A stretch of DNA of 64,000 nt from Escherichia coli (lineage in GTDB: Bacteria > Pseudomonadota > Gammaproteobacteria > Enterobacterales > Enterobacteriaceae): NCBI RefSeq assembly GCF_011045215.1, contig NZ_CP049201.1, one strand, 5' to 3'. The translations under genes and the position numbers were made by a program. Shown here piece after piece: positions 1-44,142 of this stretch (position 1 is its first letter; the number at the start of each line of letters is the position of its first letter). The notes under the pieces are model-generated. The model was not told the DNA's origin. It was given only the letters and a program-made list of their open reading frames with translations, and did not search any database.

Positions 1-56
1 GCACTGCTGGACACCCAGCCCACATCCTGACGCGCTTCGCTTGTCTGCTGCTTCGC

Positions 57-81
57 CGGGGCATAAAAAATTTATGCCCCG
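57..81. other. Perfect inverted repeat / stem-loop (CGGGGCATAAA-aaa-TTTATGCCCCG)
   Basis: 11-bp arms read directly; no adjacent T-tract, so not a canonical intrinsic terminator. Confidence 0.5.
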
Positions 82-560
82 ACTCTCCAGCTCCTGTATC
101 AATCAGATAATTTCACGACGTCTTCCAGCTTATTGCCATCATCGACGGTCAGGCTCTTACGCAATCCCATCGCGCTGACTGCATGTTCTCGCCGCCTCAG
201 TGCGATTTTGACGGCCTTATCTGCCACCCCATCAAATCAAAAGCCCTCACGTCTTTTTCACGCTCAGCGTGAGAAATACAGCCATTCTGTTGTGTTGCTG
301 CGACATCGTTCAGGGGATGCTATTTATCCCCTGAAACGCGGGCTGTTCCCCCGTCACCTGCGCGCAGAAAAAACGCGTTTTTTTGTGCACGCACGGATCC
401 TTGACGGATCCAGCCGCCACGGGGGCCGGAAGGGCAAAAAGTCGTTCAAAAAAATTGTGCAAATTTGTGCACTATCGTGCAGTGTGCATCGTGCTGTTTT
501 CTGCGCAAAAAACGGATGGTAAATTTGTTCGTAGCAGGGAAATTTTAATGAGCGCAAGAC

Positions 561-1091
561 ATGAAGAAAGATTCATATCCTTATTTGATTTGCATGACTG
601 TTTCAGTGCTAGGGATTATTTTCCTCTTTTACTGGTGGAGGGCAGATATCTACAGGATTACATATCTTAATTCGCGTATATCCAATTATTACATCTTGTG
701 TAGTATGGGTATGTCCTTTTTCTTCTCCTTGTTTCTGGTGAAGAGGGGGGTAGTGAAGCAAAGTGGCTGGAAAGGACTGTCGGAATACCTGAAGGTTTAT
801 GCTGGCTCTTGCATTCTTACAGGGATATTCCTGATTATTCCTCTTATGATGGTGACTTATTTTTTACCAGGAGTAACATCATCATATGTTGCACCGTATG
901 AGTATACATCTGGTAGTTCAAGAAGCTGTTCCGGAGCGTTTGTTGATGATCCCGAACTGCATAAAAATATTCTTATTTGCTATCCGTATGGTAACTATGA
1001 ATATGACAATATTATCTATGTTGAAAAGAAAACTAATGCATTGGGCGTTGTTGTGACGTATGCACAGACTGCACGAGACGATGCTGAATAA
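561..1091 (+). CDS. Hypothetical polytopic membrane protein (about 3 predicted TM helices, soluble C-terminal ~80 aa); AT-rich cargo gene
   Basis: 176-aa ORF with three long hydrophobic segments; strongly AT-rich relative to flanking DNA; no family recognised. Confidence 0.5.
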   Translation: MKKDSYPYLICMTVSVLGIIFLFYWWRADIYRITYLNSRISNYYILCSMGMSFFFSLFLVKRGVVKQSGWKGLSEYLKVYAGSCILTGIFLIIPLMMVTYFLPGVTSSYVAPYEYTSGSSRSCSGAFVDDPELHKNILICYPYGNYEYDNIIYVEKKTNALGVVVTYAQTARDDAE

Positions 1092-1282
1092 GATACTACA
1101 GATATAGTCCACTTTTTTGTTTATTTGTCGGGATAAAAACAAATTACCCCGACTCACCATGTATTAATCTTCCGCTTTAAGTTAGTATTTTAGCTGCGCT
1201 GTCCTGCTATTCAGCAAAGCGGCGTACTTTAATGCGTCCTGTGCTTTCTGGAATTTAAGTGCATAGTCAGTGGCGATTTTTT

Positions 1283-1564
1283 CTAGTTCAGCGATTCGGT
1301 TGTTTTTGGTTTCCAGCCAATCAAGTAGCGCCAATACTTCAGGATCCCGACATCCAACACTGTTACGCGTGATTTTTCATAATGTTCGTCGGCAAGAGTT
1401 CGGCCAATTTTGAAATCTCCATCATCACCATAACCGGAGCAGGCATAAACAACCTGTGCTCCAGATATTCGCTGAATTGACATTTCCTCGCCGCAAATAG
1501 GGCATTTCGGTACTGGCACAGGTGAATAACGTTCACGTAATGCCTGATAGTTGATTTCGCTCAT
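1283..1564 (-). CDS. Small zinc-ribbon protein (CPICG...CSG); probably frameshifted, coding signal continues in another frame to 1185
   Basis: 93-aa ORF with CxxC...C motif; protein-like translation continues in a second frame (DPEVLALLDWLETKNNRIAELEK...) past the stop at 1283. Confidence 0.4.
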   Translation of the reverse strand: MSEINYQALRERYSPVPVPKCPICGEEMSIQRISGAQVVYACSGYGDDGDFKIGRTLADEHYEKSRVTVLDVGILKYWRYLIGWKPKTTESLN

Positions 1565-1627
1565 TAAGTCGTTCTCCTTGTTTATGTTCTGAGGTGGAGA
1601 GCAGGGCGAACTCGCCCTGATGTTGTG

Positions 1628-1939
1628 TTATTCAGGAAATAACGCCCGGATATTTCCGGCCATCTGACTGGTTATCTGTGCGGTTGATACTGGCTGTGAT
1701 GCGGGGCGTTCTGTCCTGGTTTGTGTCACTGATAACGCTTCATCATCAGCCCATGCAGCTAGTCGGTAAGCCTCTGCCGGATTCATTTTCAGAAGTGCCA
1801 GCCCGGCCAGAAAAGCCACACGTTGGCCGCTTTTGCGGGCTTCTGGTGTAAGGCTGTCCAGCCAGGCGCATGCTTCGCCTTCGTTCTTGACGGCGGCGGG
1901 CTTCAGATAGAAACTTATCCGTCTGGTTGGTGTCGTCAT
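1628..1939 (-). CDS. parR: ParR (StbB)-like centromere-binding protein
   Basis: 103 aa from Met at 1939; resembles plasmid R1 ParR (from memory); AAGGAG RBS; starts 4 nt after parM stop. Confidence 0.55.
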   Translation of the reverse strand: MTTPTRRISFYLKPAAVKNEGEACAWLDSLTPEARKSGQRVAFLAGLALLKMNPAEAYRLAAWADDEALSVTQTRTERPASQPVSTAQITSQMAGNIRALFPE

Positions 1940-1943
1940 TGGT

Positions 1944-2903
1944 TTACTCCTTGTCCATTGCGTACAGCCCATTAACCAGAGCAAACTGTGGCACCCCGTC
2001 CGCGATGAAAGTCGCATTAACTCCGCAGGCTTCGCGGATAGCGGGTGCCACAATCTCCGCCCCGCCACCGACAACCATCACCCGCCCGTAACCCGAAAAA
2101 ACCGCCAGCGCGCGGATCACGCGTTGTTTCAGTGTTTCTTCCTTTTCACGAATAACCGCCATCAGGCTGGCGTAATGCGCGTCATTGTGGATGTGTTGGC
2201 GCAACCAGGCTTCATCATGGCGATGTTCGATAATGGTATTGGCGATGTGGTGACTGGTACGCATACCGTTAGCGGCCATCACCGACAGCACGGCACCGGC
2301 CATCAGGGAGACGCCTACGTGTGGATCGCAAAACACCTGGCTGATACCTGCCAGTTGCCCCTGAACCTTTGCCACATCCAGCGTGGTTCCGCCTAAATCC
2401 ACAATCAGCAGGGATTCAAACGGACTCATGTCAGCCAGTGCTTTAAAGCCAGCCGGAATGGATTCAGGCATAACCCGCACGTTACGGATAGTGAATGCTT
2501 CGCCGTTCTGGTACTCCACCGGGCGCATAACGTTCGCTTTTTTGCGGTTGATGTTGGCCATGTCCGGCTGTGCGTTTGTGTCGAAATACTCGCTCAGTGG
2601 CAGGGTGACAACCACATCCACCTCCTGTGGCGTGATGCCTGATTTGACCAGCGTGTGATGAATGGCGATTACATTCACATCGCTGTACTGGTATTGCGTG
2701 TCGGTCGTCTGGACAAAGCGATCGCTGACCGGATCAAAACCATAGCGCACGCCATCAAGCATGTAGTTCGCGGGCTGCATGCCACCGAACGGCGCAGATC
2801 ATTCCGACTTGAAGCTGTTCGGGCTGATGGCGTTGCGGCGTTCGCCATTCTCAGTCCATGCCAGCTTGATGTTGGTGGAGCCGTCGTCGATACAAATTTT
2901 CAT
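1944..2903 (-). pseudogene. parM: ParM (StbA)-like actin-type partition ATPase, interrupted by in-frame TGA at 2799-2801
   Basis: N-terminus MKICIDDGSTNIKLAW...NSFKSE then TGA, then in-frame continuation SAPFGGMQPANYML...; strong similarity to R1 ParM (from memory), where this position is Trp. Confidence 0.75.
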
Positions 2904-2932
2904 GTCGCTTTTCCTTATGTTGATTAATTAAT

Positions 2933-3050
2933 CGTTTACGGGATTCTGAAATCCCGTTTTTGCCTGTTTTGTGTGCGCTTCATATATCGCGGCGCGTTTT
3001 TTGCTCATTTACGGGATTTGTGAATCCCGTTTCTGTCTGTTTTTTGTTTC
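2933..3050. repeat. Two copies (2933-2975, 3006-3050) of a ~45-bp repeat, each with palindrome ACGGGATT-N4-AATCCCGT; candidate parC-like centromere/operator
   Basis: Direct repeat with internal inverted repeat, immediately upstream of the parM start. Confidence 0.6.
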
Positions 3051-4533
3051 CACTGGTCAGGCCACCCCGCAGCAGGTCTGCTTTGCGGCGGGCACGTTCA
3101 GTGGTTTCACTGATTCTCTGTGCGTGCTCTGCGTCGCGGATGGCGCGCAGCATGTCAGAAAGCACGGTAACGGGGGTTTTCATGGTGTTCTGGTCCTGCT
3201 GAAGTGTGGATGCCAGACGTGCGGCGGCTTCGAGGTCTGATGCCCCCAGCTGTTCCAGATAGCTGGCGACCGGGTTATGGCGGATCTCCGTGCTGCTTAC
3301 GCCGTGATTACGGCTCAGGCGCTGCCAGAGCTGCGTGATTCGGCTGTCCGGGCGGGTATCCGGTTTGCGTACAATTTCAAATCCCTGCGGTGCAATGATG
3401 CTGCCGTCAACGTACAGGCTGCCGCCCCGTAACAGGTGCTGCATCTGCTGTTCACCGATATGCATGCCGAGAGATTCGGCAGATTCCCGCCATTCTTTAG
3501 CGAGTAATTCGTGGTTATCAGGCAAAGGCCGCTGCTGTTTGCGGCTCTGTGTCCAGCTCTGCATTTCATCACTGCTGTTTTTTGCCTGTTTGTCACGCAG
3601 CGAACGCATCAGCGCCCGGCGTTCGTGCCGTTTCAGTGAGCGCACCCATTCATCCACATCAACGCCGTCAGGAAGCTGCGGCCACGGTGCTGGCCGTTCT
3701 TCCGGCTGTTCTGTCCCGTTGTTGTCCGTTTCCTGTACACGGGGACAGTTATTGCCACGAGTCCAAGGGGCGGCAGGGCCGCTCTGAAGGTCAAAACCAT
3801 TTTCGCGGGAGCTGTCTTCCGCTTCCGGTTTGCGTCTTACCAGCTTCCAGTTATCCGGATGCGTGCATACGCGGGAAGACTCCCCGATGAGCGGCGACCA
3901 GATCCCGTAAATCTGTACACTCTGCTCACCGTAATCGTTCAGTTCATCTGCGAGGTCGTAGGCGGTGCGAATCAGGTAGTCTTTGCGTGGAACAAGCACG
4001 CCACCCTGTTTTTCAATGTAGGTGGCAAAACACCCGGCATCAGCGGCAGCGAGTACCGCATCCATTGCGTCATCCTTCAGCCGTTGCGGGCCTTCCGGGT
4101 TGCGTGCCATCTGGCTGGCAAGGCGGCGCAGTTCACGCCACACCTGACGGGAGGGGATACCAAAGAACTGGAACTGGCGGACCCGGTGAAGGCGCGCCCA
4201 GCCGATGGCGCGTTCCACGCTCTCGGCCATTGATTTTCCGGTTTCGTGGTCAACGCGTGGCTTGCCCGTTTTCGGGTCGATGCCATCCACGGCGCGGCTG
4301 TCCAGGTTCTTTCCGATGTAGGTGGCGATGTAGCTGGTTGGCGTGCCTTTTGAGCCGTCGACGTACTCCGCCTTAAAACGCGGAGTTATGTCATCGCCCA
4401 GCTCGTGGCGGTCTTCCTGAATGGCAATATCGCAGACGTGGGACACGATGGTTTCAATCTCGTCCGGATGTGCAAAGACCATCATATGCCAGTGCACAGT
4501 GCCGTCATGGTGAGGCTCCAGCGGTGTATTCAC
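2980..4533 (-). pseudogene. HUH-motif rolling-circle replication initiator, P2 gpA-like; apparently 5'-truncated
   Basis: 517-aa ORF begins at GTG right at the motif HHDGTVHWHMMVFAHPDE, preceded by in-frame TGA; upstream 300 bp is coding-like in two other frames. Confidence 0.5.
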
Positions 4534-4686
4534 TCAGCGAGGCACACCCGCCAGCAGTGTGATGCGCCAGCATTGCCGCAAATACGGAGGCCGGGGAGTC
4601 GTAATACGCCAGCAGTGATTCGCCATGCGGTGTCAGGCAGCGCAACGCCAGCCCGTGTGGTGTTAAGTCCACGCGGTAGCAGTCGT

Positions 4687-4836
4687 CTACTGTGAAATAA
4701 AGGGTGAGCGTTGTTCTTTAGCTGCCATTTCATCAATGACGGCTCGCTCTTCGAGGGACAGCCGAAGTGCCAGTCTTGGACCTGTGGCGGTGTTACGCGG
4801 AATGCGTGATCTGGTATCGTGAAGAACTTGTTTCAT
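4687..4836 (-). CDS. Small 49-aa ORF divergent from the XRE gene (possible Cox/excisionase-like or RHH regulator)
   Basis: ATG at 4836 to TAG at 4687; below the 60-aa ORF-track cutoff; position equivalent to cox in a P2-type early region. Confidence 0.3.
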   Translation of the reverse strand: MKQVLHDTRSRIPRNTATGPRLALRLSLEERAVIDEMAAKEQRSPFISQ

Positions 4837-4878
4837 AGTGGTATATTGTGATCATCTAATAGCTCATGAAATCATTTT

Positions 4879-4896
4879 GGTATCAAAAAAGATACC
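4879..4896. promoter_or_regulatory. Palindrome GGTATC-N6-GATACC in the divergent promoter region; candidate operator
   Basis: 6-bp perfect inverted arms with A6 spacer between divergent starts at 4836 and 4912. Confidence 0.35.
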
Positions 4897-4911
4897 TGTC
4901 AAGGTTTTTGT

Positions 4912-5316
4912 ATGAAAAATGATATTGGTCAGCGGTTGCGTGAGGAAAGGGAAAGATTGGGGCTTAGTCAAGTTGCTATGAGCGACATTGGTGGAGTCAA
5001 AAAGCTAACTCAGCTTAGATATGAGAAAGGAGATAGCTTTCCTGATGCTGCGTATTTGGCAGCGCTGTCTCGTTTTGGCCTTGATGTTCAGTATGTTGTG
5101 TTGGGAATTCACTCACCTGAAACTTATAACGATGATGAGCAGGAGTTGATTACTCGCTTTCGAGCAGCTTCGTTAGATGTAAAAAACGCGGTGATCGGGG
5201 CTTTAAAAGGTGCGGGCAGTGAAAAGGAAACTCAGCCATCAGGGCGTGAGTTAAATATTTCTGGTGGTAATAACCGTATCGCTGGTCGTGACTATAACGA
5301 AACTAAGGGTAGGTGA
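4912..5316 (+). CDS. XRE-family helix-turn-helix protein (repressor-like) with C-terminal tail carrying an NNRIAGRDYNE motif
   Basis: N-terminal HTH signature (IGQRLREERERLGLSQVAMSDIGGVKKLTQLRYEKG); low GC. Confidence 0.7.
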   Translation: MKNDIGQRLREERERLGLSQVAMSDIGGVKKLTQLRYEKGDSFPDAAYLAALSRFGLDVQYVVLGIHSPETYNDDEQELITRFRAASLDVKNAVIGALKGAGSEKETQPSGRELNISGGNNRIAGRDYNETKGR

Positions 5317-5331
5317 TAGTAGGGAGGTGAC

Positions 5332-5982
5332 ATGGCCGTCAACTCAAACGGTTCAAACAATCGCGTTGCTGGGCGTGATTTTCACGAAAAGAATATTCAG
5401 ATAGAGCGATATGATGGTTCTCATACCGTCAATATCGCAATCCCTTCGAATAATGATGATGACGCTCGCCCTTTGCTTAAGGCACAGCGTAAGGAGCTAA
5501 ATAGCTTGGTTGCTGCTATTGCAGAAGCTAGCAATACTGAAGCGTTTATTATTTGGCAAAAAGTACATGCGGAGATTGGTGTAGCTGGTATTGATGATAT
5601 GACAATAAATCAATATAAAACAGCGGAGAGTTTTCTGCATGCAATGCTTGAGCGATGTAAAGATCATGATGCCTGTAAGACTCTTGTAAGTTTATTACTA
5701 CGTAACAGTGAAGACTGTGGACTTCGACAAAAACTTCTGCGGTATTGCCATATCAATTTCGGTACAGGACGTTTAAACGATCTTACTCGTTCTCAGTTAC
5801 AGTCTGCATTGTCGTGGTTAGAGCAACAATCGGTATCAAGCCACTCAGAGAATTCGACCTTACCAGAAGTTCGCCTTCGTGCTTCAGAATTAATCCGATT
5901 TTATCCAAAAGAAATAATATTCTTTATCTGCGTAGGGGTTTTGGTAGGCGGAGCCATTTCTAGGATGTTTTTTAATTTGTAA
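5332..5982 (+). CDS. Hypothetical protein, cytoplasmic domain plus single C-terminal transmembrane anchor; N-terminus repeats the NNRVAGRDFHE motif
   Basis: 216 aa; strong RBS AGGGAGGTGA 5 nt upstream; C-terminal hydrophobic segment IIFFICVGVLVGGAI; low GC. Confidence 0.6.
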   Translation: MAVNSNGSNNRVAGRDFHEKNIQIERYDGSHTVNIAIPSNNDDDARPLLKAQRKELNSLVAAIAEASNTEAFIIWQKVHAEIGVAGIDDMTINQYKTAESFLHAMLERCKDHDACKTLVSLLLRNSEDCGLRQKLLRYCHINFGTGRLNDLTRSQLQSALSWLEQQSVSSHSENSTLPEVRLRASELIRFYPKEIIFFICVGVLVGGAISRMFFNL

Positions 5983-6011
5983 TCTTACTTGAGCTAAATT
6001 GAGGCAATGAC

Positions 6012-6359
6012 ATGAAAGTAAAAAAGGTTCAACTATTAGTTGCTTTTTTATCTATGTTTTCTTTTTCCGCCGTCGCAATGCCTTTTAAAACTATTGAACG
6101 TGAGAGTTTCAATGGAGTATGGCCATTTAATACAGATGAGGTTCAATTGCAGTGTCTTGATGGTAATCCTTATGTGATGAATTTTGACGATAATAAGTTA
6201 TATGCGCTTACAGGTTTGGCTCGAATAAAAGGTAAAACATTTGGTGCGTTACCGTTAGATAACAATAATCCATTTTGGCTAGATAATGATGCCGCCCCAG
6301 GGTTAAAAAAGAATCTGGGGGACGTCACTAAGGCTGCATTTGATTTATGTGATAAGTAA
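6012..6359 (+). CDS. Small secreted/periplasmic protein with signal peptide (tentatively DUF2511/YebY-like)
   Basis: 115 aa; N-terminal signal peptide MKVKKVQLLVAFLSMFSFSAVA; family assignment from memory only. Confidence 0.55.
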   Translation: MKVKKVQLLVAFLSMFSFSAVAMPFKTIERESFNGVWPFNTDEVQLQCLDGNPYVMNFDDNKLYALTGLARIKGKTFGALPLDNNNPFWLDNDAAPGLKKNLGDVTKAAFDLCDK

Positions 6360-6364
6360 CAAAA

Positions 6365-7366
6365 ATGTCGGTTCGTAAAACTCCATCAGGTAAATGGCTT
6401 TGCGAATGTTATCCCTACGGAGCATCGGGAAAACGCATTCGTAAACAGTTTGCGACAAAAAGTGAGGCGCTCTCTTATGAGCGCCGTTTAATGAATAGTA
6501 GAGTTGGAGACGAGTTTCAAGATGGTTCTGGTCCTCGTCTTTCTGAGTTGATTGCTCGTTGGTTTGAGATGTACGGAAAAACCTTGTCCTCTGGTGCAGA
6601 GCGCAAAGTCAAACTTGAGGCGATTTGTTCTAGGCTGGGAGATCCATTTGCTTCTCAGTTTGACAAAAATATGTTTGCTACTTATCGGGAAAGAAGGCTA
6701 TCAGGAGAATGGAATCCCAAGGGGAAGAAAAAACTTAGTGAAGCAACCGTTAATCGCGAGCAGTCATATCTACATGCTGTTTTTGCCGAACTGAAGCGCC
6801 TTGGGGAGTGGTCTGGTGAAAACCCCCTGACTGGAATTCGCAAGTTTCGTGAGGAAGAAAAGGAGCTGGCGTTTCTGTATGTAGATGAGATTGAACGCCT
6901 TTTGATTGCGTGTGATGATTCACGGAATAAAGATTTGGGGGTTGTTGTCCGTATTGGGCTTGCGACTGGTGCTCGGTGGAGTGAAGCAGAAGGATTAAAG
7001 CAATCTCAAGTACTGCCCGGTCGAATCACATTTGTTAAAACTAAAGGAAAGAAGAACCGCACTGTACCGATTTCACCTCAATTGCAGGCTATGCTTCCTA
7101 AAAAACGAGGAGCGCTATTTTCACCATGTTATGAGGCTTTTGACGCTGCAATTAAGAGAGCGAAGATAGAGCTCCCTGATGGGCAATTAACTCATGTGCT
7201 ACGTCACACGTTTGCTAGTCATTTTATGATGCGGGGCGGAAATATTCTTGTGTTGCAAAAAATACTGGGGCATAGCGATATAAAAATGACTATGCGTTAT
7301 GCGCATTTTGCTCCGGGTCATTTAGAGGCTGCTGTTGAATTAAACCCTTTTGACAATAGAGGGTAA
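6365..7366 (+). CDS. int: Tyrosine recombinase, P2-type phage integrase
   Basis: 333 aa; motifs LATGARWSEA, ITFVKTKGKKNRTVPIS, HVLRHTFASHFMMRGGNILVLQKILGH, MRYAHF closely match P2 Int (from memory). Confidence 0.9.
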   Translation: MSVRKTPSGKWLCECYPYGASGKRIRKQFATKSEALSYERRLMNSRVGDEFQDGSGPRLSELIARWFEMYGKTLSSGAERKVKLEAICSRLGDPFASQFDKNMFATYRERRLSGEWNPKGKKKLSEATVNREQSYLHAVFAELKRLGEWSGENPLTGIRKFREEEKELAFLYVDEIERLLIACDDSRNKDLGVVVRIGLATGARWSEAEGLKQSQVLPGRITFVKTKGKKNRTVPISPQLQAMLPKKRGALFSPCYEAFDAAIKRAKIELPDGQLTHVLRHTFASHFMMRGGNILVLQKILGHSDIKMTMRYAHFAPGHLEAAVELNPFDNRG

Positions 7367-7472
7367 AAAGTGGCGATAAAAAGTGACAATAGATTCAAAT
7401 GGCGTCGTATAGAGCTATTTGCAAAGTTAATAAAATCATAAGGTTATGATTTATAAATGGTGGTTGATAGTT

Positions 7473-7527
7473 TTTAAAATCCCTCGGCGTTCGCGCTGTG
7501 CGGGTTCAAGTCCCGCTCCGGGTACCA
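7473..7527 (+). other. leuZ: 3' ~55 nt of tRNA-Leu (leuZ) ending in CCA: attachment-site core; not an intact tRNA
   Basis: TTTAAAATCCCTCGGCGTTCGCGCTGTGCGGGTTCAAGTCCCGCTCCGGGTACCA matches the leuZ 3' part; upstream sequence only partly tRNA-like, no acceptor-stem 5' strand. Confidence 0.8.
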
Positions 7528-7570
7528 TGGGAAAGATAAGAATAAAATCAAAGCAATAAGCAGTGTCGTG

Positions 7571-7596
7571 AAACCACCTTCGGGTGGTTTTTTTGT
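7571..7596 (+). terminator. Intrinsic terminator of the leuZ tRNA operon
   Basis: AAACCACC-TTCG-GGTGGTTT stem followed by T-run. Confidence 0.8.
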
Positions 7597-7722
7597 GCCT
7601 GCAACTTGTCGTTACACCCTCCTTAATTTTTAATCACCGGCAAAGCCACTCAAAAAGTATCTCTGATACGGACCGGCATGTAAGATAGGTGCTGGCGAGT
7701 TGAGATCCACAAGGAAAAGCGT

Positions 7723-8388
7723 ATGAAAACGGGACCGTTAAACGAAAGTGAGTTGGAATGGCTGGACGATATTCTGACCAAATACAACACTGACCACGCC
7801 ATCCTTGATGTGGCGGAGCTGGACGGTTTATTGACGGCAGTGTTGAGTTCTCCGCAAGAGATTGAACCGGCACAGTGGCTGGTTGCCGTGTGGGGTGGGG
7901 CTGACTATGTGCCGCGCTGGGCGTCAGAGAAAGAGATGACGCGCTTTATGAACCTGGCTTTTCAACATATGGCCGATACCGCAGAGCGTCTGAACGAATT
8001 CCCGGAGCAGTTTGAGCCGTTATTCGGCTTGCGAGAAGTTGATGGCAGCGAGCTGACGATTGTTGAGGAGTGGTGCTTTGGCTATATGCGGGGCGTGGCA
8101 CTTTCTGACTGGTCAACATTGCCCGATTCGTTAAAACCAGCGCTGGAGGCGATAGCGCTGCACGGTACTGAGGAAAACTTCGAGCGGGTAGAGAAGATGT
8201 CGCCAGAAGCGTTTGAAGAGAGCGTAGATGCCATTCGACTGGCGGCGCTTGATTTACATGCATACTGGATGGCGCATCCGCAGGAAAAAGCTGTTCAGCA
8301 ACCGATCAAAGCAGAAGAGAAACCGGGGCGTAACGATCCTTGTCCGTGCGGCAGTGGTAAGAAATTTAAGCAGTGCTGCCTGCATTAA
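7723..8388 (+). CDS. yecA: UPF0149 protein YecA with C-terminal SEC-C zinc motif
   Basis: 221 aa; C-terminal [13 protein letters not shown]; K-12 synteny. Confidence 0.9.
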
Positions 8389-39293: not shown

Positions 39294-40049
<756 letters not shown>

Positions 40050-40095
40050 TTTTTACCGTTGCATCATGTCGCCCAATATGATGCTTGCTCGTACC

Positions 40096-40128
40096 AGGCC
40101 CCTGCAATTTCAACAGGGGCCTTTTTTT
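40096..40128 (+). terminator. Intrinsic terminator after cutC
   Basis: AGGCCCCTG...CAGGGGCCT stem then T7. Confidence 0.8.
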
Positions 40129-44040: not shown

Positions 44041-44142
44041 CTGCCTGATGCGCTATGCTTATCAGGCCTACATAGTCCCTGCAATATATTGAATTAGCAA
44101 GGTTTTGTAGGCCGGATAAGGCGTTCACGCCGCATCCGGCAG
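44041..44142. repeat. REP/BIME palindromic elements
   Basis: GCCTGATGCGCTA...TAGGCCGGATAAGGCGTTCACGCCGCATCCGGCA. Confidence 0.75.

Follow-up and report, generated by a model that had tools for sequence, protein, structure and literature searches.

A displaced leuZ 3' fragment as the likely right attachment site of a P2-family prophage with an HP1-type integrase in Escherichia coli

Next to yecA, the 64,000-nucleotide stretch of E. coli DNA analysed here (the window) carries the 3' part of the tRNA gene leuZ. We are confident that positions 7367-7596 of the window are the attR of a P2-family prophage with an HP1-type integrase that has integrated into leuZ, with strand exchange likely at the anticodon loop. 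Both the type of junction and leuZ as an integration site are already known in kind, and a preliminary description of this DNA, made from its letters alone, was right in outline. For annotation, the junction shows precisely where a P2/HP1-like prophage at leuZ ends on its right-hand side, and what the present analysis adds is the finding that the duplicated sequence takes in far more than a piece of a tRNA gene.

In the mechanism that we propose, the circular phage genome would present an attP in which int is followed by a P arm with TGGCG-type repeats, a 124-bp copy of host sequence and a P' arm. The host copy would comprise leuZ from its anticodon loop to the tRNA 3' end, the 67-nt small RNA 3'ETS-leuZ, and the terminator. 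Int would exchange strands with the chromosome, most likely at the 7-nt anticodon loop, and at the resulting attL the host leuZ 5' half would continue into the 3' half, 3'ETS and terminator brought by the phage, leaving the glyW-cysT-leuZ operon whole, sponge RNA included. At this attL, the intact leuZ would be followed, after ...TTTTTTTGT, by ATTTGTATTTTGAGCAATGGCGG, which belongs to the P' arm and the ogr-side end of the prophage. The 3' half, 3'ETS and terminator that the host had to begin with would be moved about 36 kb away, to the int-side end beside yecA, where they would make up the fragment seen in the window. We infer from this scheme that the copy at the intact leuZ is the one derived from the phage. 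The features on which the following sections draw are collected in Table 1.

Table 1. Features of the leuZ attachment region and the adjoining prophage, in window positions
Feature	Positions	Strand	Basis or remark
Right-hand 7.4 kb of a P2-like prophage, degraded copy	1-7366		Collinear with the G12 prophage save for deletions and replaced cargo
Immunity-repressor-type gene (HTH)	4912-5316	+	First gene of a rightward C-orf-orf-int block
int, HP1-type tyrosine integrase, 333 aa	6365-7366	+	Reads towards the att site
Phage-derived P arm of attR	7367-7472	+	Fills the interval from int stop codon to identity block; absent from the K-12 empty site
Best arm-type integrase repeat, AAGTGGCGATAA	7368-7379	+	PWM 15.8 bits, top position in the 64-kb window
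Second arm-type repeat, AAATGGCGTCGT	7397-7408	+	PWM 8.4 bits, about 1e-3 per position
IHF-like putative site, AATCATAAGGTTA	7434-7446	+	12/13 positions of WATCAANNNNTTR; read from the sequence
'D-arm-like' stretch, AAATGGTGGTTG	7455-7466	+	PWM 8.3 bits, co-oriented with the other repeats; degenerate arm-type repeat or chance match
TTTAAAA, leuZ anticodon loop	7473-7479	+	Left edge of identity; likely 7-bp overlap (strand-exchange) region
Displaced leuZ 3' part, nt 33-87	7473-7527	+	Anticodon loop, variable arm, T arm, 3' acceptor strand, CCA
Full att identity block, direct repeat common to attL	7473-7596	+	100% identical to G12 L002 5133-5256
Complete copy of the 3'ETS-leuZ sRNA (RyhB/RybB sponge)	7528-7594	+	67/67 identity to K-12 b4759, 1991748-1991814
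Chromosomal flank: leuZ-yecA spacer and yecA (7723-8388)	7597-8388	+	K-12 identity, yecA annotation

The displaced leuZ fragment and its prophage

In both E. coli G12 and K-12, leuZ is an 87-nt tRNA-Leu gene with anticodon UAA. The fragment in the window (TTTAAAATCCCTCGGCGTTCGCGCTGTGCGGGTTCAAGTCCCGCTCCGGGTACCA) is identical to nt 33-87 of leuZ in these genomes at 55/55 positions, and the match starts with base 1 of the 7-nt anticodon loop and ends at the CCA. The preliminary description had recognized this match and had noted that the 5' acceptor strand is missing, and both observations hold. The parts that would complete a functional tRNA gene, namely the 5' acceptor strand, the D arm and the 5' strand of the anticodon stem, are absent at this site, and the window contains not a single 15-mer from leuZ nt 1-32. 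A complete tRNA call here would have contradicted the reading as a fragment; ARAGORN called 0 tRNA genes across the whole 64-kb window, and the Rfam tRNA model RF00005 scored the fragment at 17 bits, below its gathering score of 29. The fragment should be annotated neither as a tRNA nor as a pseudo-tRNA. That only the 3' part of leuZ remains, as had been claimed, describes the displaced fragment correctly but understates the extent of the repeat: BLAST comparison of the window with the G12 locus gave an identity block of 124 bp rather than 55 bp, reaching 69 bp past the CCA, with flanks that diverge on either side.

The relations among attL, attR and attB can be read from related genomes. ARAGORN found no intact leuZ in the window because the window opens within the prophage, where the portal gene ends, and attL lies off it. 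In G12, an intact leuZ (L002 5101-5187) is followed 35,992 bp downstream, measured from repeat to repeat, by a co-oriented displaced copy, and the expectation of an intact leuZ at the other end of the element is thus borne out in relatives of the window prophage. The gene order between the two runs from the intact leuZ through an ogr-type gene, tail, lysis and head genes, the replication endonuclease, a repressor-type gene and int to the 124-bp copy and yecA, which places int at the yecA-side end; to the right of the 124-bp copy at the intact leuZ lies phage DNA. The empty site of K-12 contains the 124-mer once. This arrangement has the features of an Islander-type tDNA island: a co-oriented 3' fragment downstream of an intact tDNA (in related genomes such as G12, attL being off the window), a tyrosine integrase between the tDNA and the fragment, and a distal flank continuous with the unoccupied chromosomal site, since window positions 7597-7722, immediately to the right of the block, match K-12 at 125/126 positions.

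The junction is widespread. We found int, attR and yecA in this arrangement in 492 of 5426 complete E. coli genomes, including O157:H7, O103, O111 and O121 strains, and the O157 genomes match the int-yecA junction at 98.5%. Prophage Sp13 of the O157:H7 strain Sakai has been reported at leuZ, as has an integrative element in O145:H28. A record named 'Escherichia phage 520873' was considered as a source of a free-phage attP and rejected, as it is a prophage excerpt that includes yecA.

A fragment of this kind could also be left by a deletion or rearrangement that removed the 5' half of leuZ with no integrase-mediated insertion, an origin that would suit the lack of an intact leuZ in the window and the presence of other deletions in this prophage copy. 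We regard it as barely credible, given that the breakpoint falls on exactly the same base as attR does in the intact 36-kb prophages of other genomes, that the fragment abuts a complete P arm and int, and that the junction is common to the 492 genomes. 

Compared with G12, the window is collinear and 98.25% identical over 23.5 kb. Two deletions relative to G12 (L001 15089-16446 and 16635-18698) take out the 5' half of the replication gene, and the replication endonuclease ORF at 2980-4533 on the minus strand retains only its C-terminal half, matching phrog_91 positions 403-852. These deletions also take away about 2 kb of early genes, including a 67-aa DNA-binding gene at the Cox/Apl position (G12 L001 18411-18614). 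A recombination directionality factor of the Cox/Apl type, which forms part of the HP1/186-type module, is accordingly lacking from the window, the segment having been deleted. The prophage in the window is defective and its Int-attP module a remnant; the junction is probably no longer active, because the Cox/Apl-type gene has gone and only half the replication gene is left. Among the 5426 complete E. coli genomes, none matched the prophage part in one piece, the best matches being one of 97.9%, split into three pieces, and one of 99.5% over the junction, and none carried the same deletion variant.

The repressor-type gene stays below the curated cut-offs of Pfam HTH_31 and HTH_19, matches PHROG transcriptional regulator/repressor families, and occupies the position of a 'helix-turn-helix domain-containing protein' in G12. 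Between it and int, at 5332-6359, are two ORFs on the same strand, of 216 aa (phrog_5825) and 115 aa (DUF2511), which are possible morons expressed during lysogeny. Downstream of the portal gene, a cargo segment (484-1627) is replaced relative to G12, which has a DUF3800 gene there; we take this position to be a variable hotspot in P2-like phages. The segment holds a 176-aa ORF (561-1091, phrog_1416, no assigned function) with no PADLOC match, and PADLOC returned no matches on the small prophage ORFs. Also inside the prophage, at 1628-2780, are ParM-type segregation and partition genes, annotated in G12 as plasmid segregation protein ParM and partitioning/stability protein. Elsewhere in the window, Rfam gave gathering-level matches to MicL (39821-40128, plus strand), C0465 (25751-25828, minus strand) and ES036/CssrF (44064-44106, minus strand), ordinary chromosomal sRNAs of the region.

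Integrase, arm repeats and the position of strand exchange

The integrase has the Pfam domains Int_N and Phage_integrase and is 59% identical to HP1 Int over its full length, compared with only about 38-40% to P2 Int. Its catalytic domain matches the HP1 integrase structure (PDB 1AIH) with E=3e-75, and by homology it thus belongs with the HP1/186-type module. The gene ends 106 bp upstream of the leuZ fragment. The preliminary description was correct that int adjoins the displaced copy instead of the intact tRNA, an arrangement that is not unusual. In each of the three tDNA-targeting P2-family attPs that we examined, those of HP1, the 186-like BIS20 and the Fels-2-like RE2010, int reads towards attP, in the same orientation as the tRNA-like segment. 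Because attP places int upstream of and co-oriented with that segment, int ends beside attR after integration. In the lambdoid leuZ phages mEp390 and Fostie and in ZF40, int is found on the opposite side, in convergent orientation, and it therefore adjoins the intact tRNA. Both layouts occur at leuZ, and int beside the displaced copy is a standard layout and no anomaly.

The annotated attP of HP1 is composed in the same order. Read in the sense of int, the int stop codon is followed by an arm with ACTGGCGAT and GCTGGCGGT, then by TTTAAAATCCCTCG at the left edge of the tRNA-Leu segment and the rest of the tRNA-Leu 3' half, then by a complete tRNA-Lys, and finally by a second arm with ACTGGCGAC, AGTGGCGGTT and AATGGCGATAACCGCCAGT.

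The left edge of identity and the analogy with HP1 together point to the anticodon loop as the place of crossover. The tRNA-Leu match of the HP1 attP begins at the same anticodon loop, and in an alignment of four leuZ-type attPs, identity begins at the loop in the element studied here and 1-2 nt upstream in mEp390, Fostie and ZF40. A host-identical block starting from the target tRNA's anticodon loop is thus found here as in the HP1/186-type module; in the 186-like BIS20 the block begins at the anticodon loop of its tRNA-Ile. HP1 has an attB that was delimited experimentally to 18 bp. We infer that the overlap is TTTAAAA (7473-7479), in which case everything 3' of it at attL would be supplied by the phage. 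The preliminary description had proposed recombination within the tRNA 3' end; site-specific integration and a displaced fragment stand, and the boundary is moved to the anticodon loop.

Strand exchange could instead take place elsewhere in the 124-bp block, for instance at the T loop, the acceptor junction or within the 3'ETS, with the loop edge marking only the limit of captured host DNA. The two 124-bp copies are identical, offering no polymorphism from which to read a crossover point, and T-loop or junction sites are common overall, accounting for 1836/3919 tDNA islands in Islander. Even so, we consider exchange outside the loop unlikely. Anticodon-centred sites are the majority class in the same collection (2083/3919), and phages as unrelated in type as mEp390, Fostie and ZF40 start their identity within 2 nt of the loop, as does HP1, while the BIS20 attP starts at the loop of a different tRNA. 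The integrase is moreover a close relative of HP1 Int, whose attB has been mapped to 18 bp. Hauser and Scocca reportedly found in 1992 that these 18 bp span the anticodon stem-loop and are centred on the anticodon loop. Exchange at the anticodon loop therefore remains our preferred reading.

To the left of the loop lies the P arm. A position weight matrix (PWM) for arm repeats, trained only on the attP arms of other phages, gave three matches of at least 8 bits within its 106 bp (Poisson P=0.002), and the repeats are of the TGGCG type. In the P' arm of G12 there are likewise three matches, phased at 11 bp. Direct arm repeats of the aagTGGCggca type therefore flank the core on both sides, in the P arm of the window and the P' arm of G12, as in the HP1/186-type module. 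A putative IHF-like site, read against the general IHF consensus WATCAANNNNTTR, also falls in the P arm. K139, RE2010 and BIS20 have TGGCG(A/G) repeats that are typically paired 11 bp apart, and the best repeat in the window, AAGTGGCGATAA, matches the reverse complement of tgccGCCActt, the arm consensus given for the 186 type (Nilsson et al., PMC3448106).

The part of the P arm next to the fragment had been described as partly tRNA-like, resembling the leuZ D arm. This claim did not survive comparison with chance. If it were correct, the sequence upstream of 7473 would be a diverged remnant of the leuZ 5' half carried in attP, and there is indeed an exact ATGGTGG in common with leuZ nt 7-13 and a loose T.G.TAG resemblance beyond it. 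That single 7-mer is, however, all that the likeness of AAATGGTGGTTGATAG to the D arm amounts to in exact matches, and it lies 9-10 nt out of tRNA register; in register, about 3/11 positions beside the loop agree. When leuZ nt 1-32 is aligned locally with the 60 nt upstream of 7473, the score is 7, a value that mono- and dinucleotide shuffles place at chance level (p = 0.16-0.20) and that 24% of 60-nt tiles of the window attain. On the arm-repeat PWM, 7455-7466 scores 8.3 bits and the genuine leuZ D arm 0.2 bits, and the matrix fits the stretch somewhat better than does the D arm. D-arm ancestry of 7455-7470 was accordingly rejected, and we judge a tRNA remnant at this place to be highly improbable.

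From its sequence, we read the DNA just upstream of the fragment as phage P-arm DNA. Whether 7455-7466 is itself a degenerate, putative Int arm site is about an even bet, and this assignment stays tentative because HP1 has no scoring arm-like site at the equivalent offset. The AAATGGT near the core of RE2010 was considered as a counterpart and set aside, as its offset differs and the two are not comparable. Tracing 7455-7466 to a tRNA is unnecessary whether it is an arm site or a chance match.

The 3'ETS-leuZ copy within the repeat

In K-12, the 67 nt after leuZ are annotated as the small regulatory RNA 3'ETS-leuZ (b4759), which is released by RNase E from the glyW-cysT-leuZ precursor and sponges RyhB and RybB. 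The copy in the window stands directly 3' of a leuZ CCA and contains the RyhB/RybB-pairing region, the terminator hairpin and the U tail of b4759. The hairpin, at 7571-7590 (AAACCACC-TTCG-GGTGGTTT), is followed by a U tract and folds as expected into an 8-bp hairpin. The point of wider interest is therefore that the att duplication takes in the whole sponge RNA together with its terminator, such that leuZ elements duplicate a characterised regulatory RNA. We found no paper that joins 3'ETS-leuZ to a prophage att duplication, and we offer as a minor new point that lysogens, judged by sequence, would hold two copies of this RyhB/RybB sponge. If the proposed mechanism is correct, the phage-borne copy would preserve the sponge of the host operon.

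Surplus copies are common. A count over 5424 E. coli genomes gave 7103 occurrences of the 124-bp segment, which amounts to 1679 copies in surplus, each with the leuZ 3' half and 3'ETS-leuZ. Among the matches listed, the displaced copies have no feature annotated beneath them. RNA-seq reads would multi-map between the two 3'ETS-leuZ copies.

In contrast to 3'ETS-leuZ in the glyW-cysT-leuZ operon, the copy in the window is severed from the glyW promoter, with the prophage int upstream of it. It is a long shot, although conceivable, that the displaced fragment is not inert and serves as the 3' UTR and terminator of a prophage repressor-int transcript, in which case it might form a second, prophage-controlled source of 3'ETS-leuZ. 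The suggestion comes from the fragment being co-oriented with int, 106 bp downstream of it, with no plus-strand terminator-like site between. A scan for terminator and promoter consensus sequences over 4700-7800 reported no plus-strand terminator, a negative that carries little weight because the same scan missed the known leuZ terminator at 7571-7594. Were the displaced copy expressed, the common occupancy of leuZ would alter the dosage of the sponge, and with it the noise of the iron and envelope-stress sRNAs.

Copies in lambdoid phages have diverged from this sequence. In mEp390 and Fostie (L005 2501-2619; L011 1801-1925), the leuZ 3' half and 3'ETS are 87-88% identical to those in the window and the terminator loop is changed. 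The T stem shows a compensatory change, with a C to T paired with a G to A, and ATAAGCAGTGTCGT is kept within the 3'ETS. The compensatory change and the retained ATAAGCAGTGTCGT are consistent with selection on the phage-borne copy, as far as these few sequences go. The mEp390-type variant, which would mark a swap of the operon 3'ETS by lysogeny, had no match of at least 95% in the complete E. coli genomes.

Comparison with known elements

The integration site is shared with Sp13 of O157:H7 Sakai and with other STEC leuZ elements. The published accounts consulted name the site; the 124-bp repeat and the 3'ETS within it go undescribed there. The copy in the window differs from the STEC leuZ prophages in its own deletions and in a different cargo segment.

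The attPs of mEp390, Fostie and Pectobacterium phage ZF40 have the same succession of a leuZ segment from anticodon loop to CCA, a 3'ETS-like segment and a terminator. Their copies are 80-88% identical to that in the window, and they differ from it in having int convergent on the opposite side.

In 186-type phages, long common cores restore the tRNA and reach beyond it (Nilsson et al., PMC3448106), and the 186-type attP combines such a core with the tgccGCCActt arm repeats, as does the element in the window. The 186-like BIS20 also has the same order of int, a segment from anticodon loop to CCA, and a terminator. Unlike the element in the window, the 186 type targets tRNA-Ile, and the identity between the integrases is about 56%.

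HP1, a Haemophilus phage of the Peduoviridae that integrates at tRNA-Leu, differs in host and target operon, and has no scoring counterpart of the repeat at 7455. Its block continues into a complete tRNA-Lys, where the block described here continues into 3'ETS-leuZ and the terminator, and the copy in the window has lost the Cox/Apl-type gene. In other respects the likeness is close: int runs towards attP in the same order and encodes a 59% identical integrase, TGGCG-type direct repeats lie on each arm as they do in the window and the G12 element, and the TTTAAAA loop of tRNA-Leu(UAA) followed by TCCCTCG forms the left edge of a block that runs well past the tRNA 3' end.
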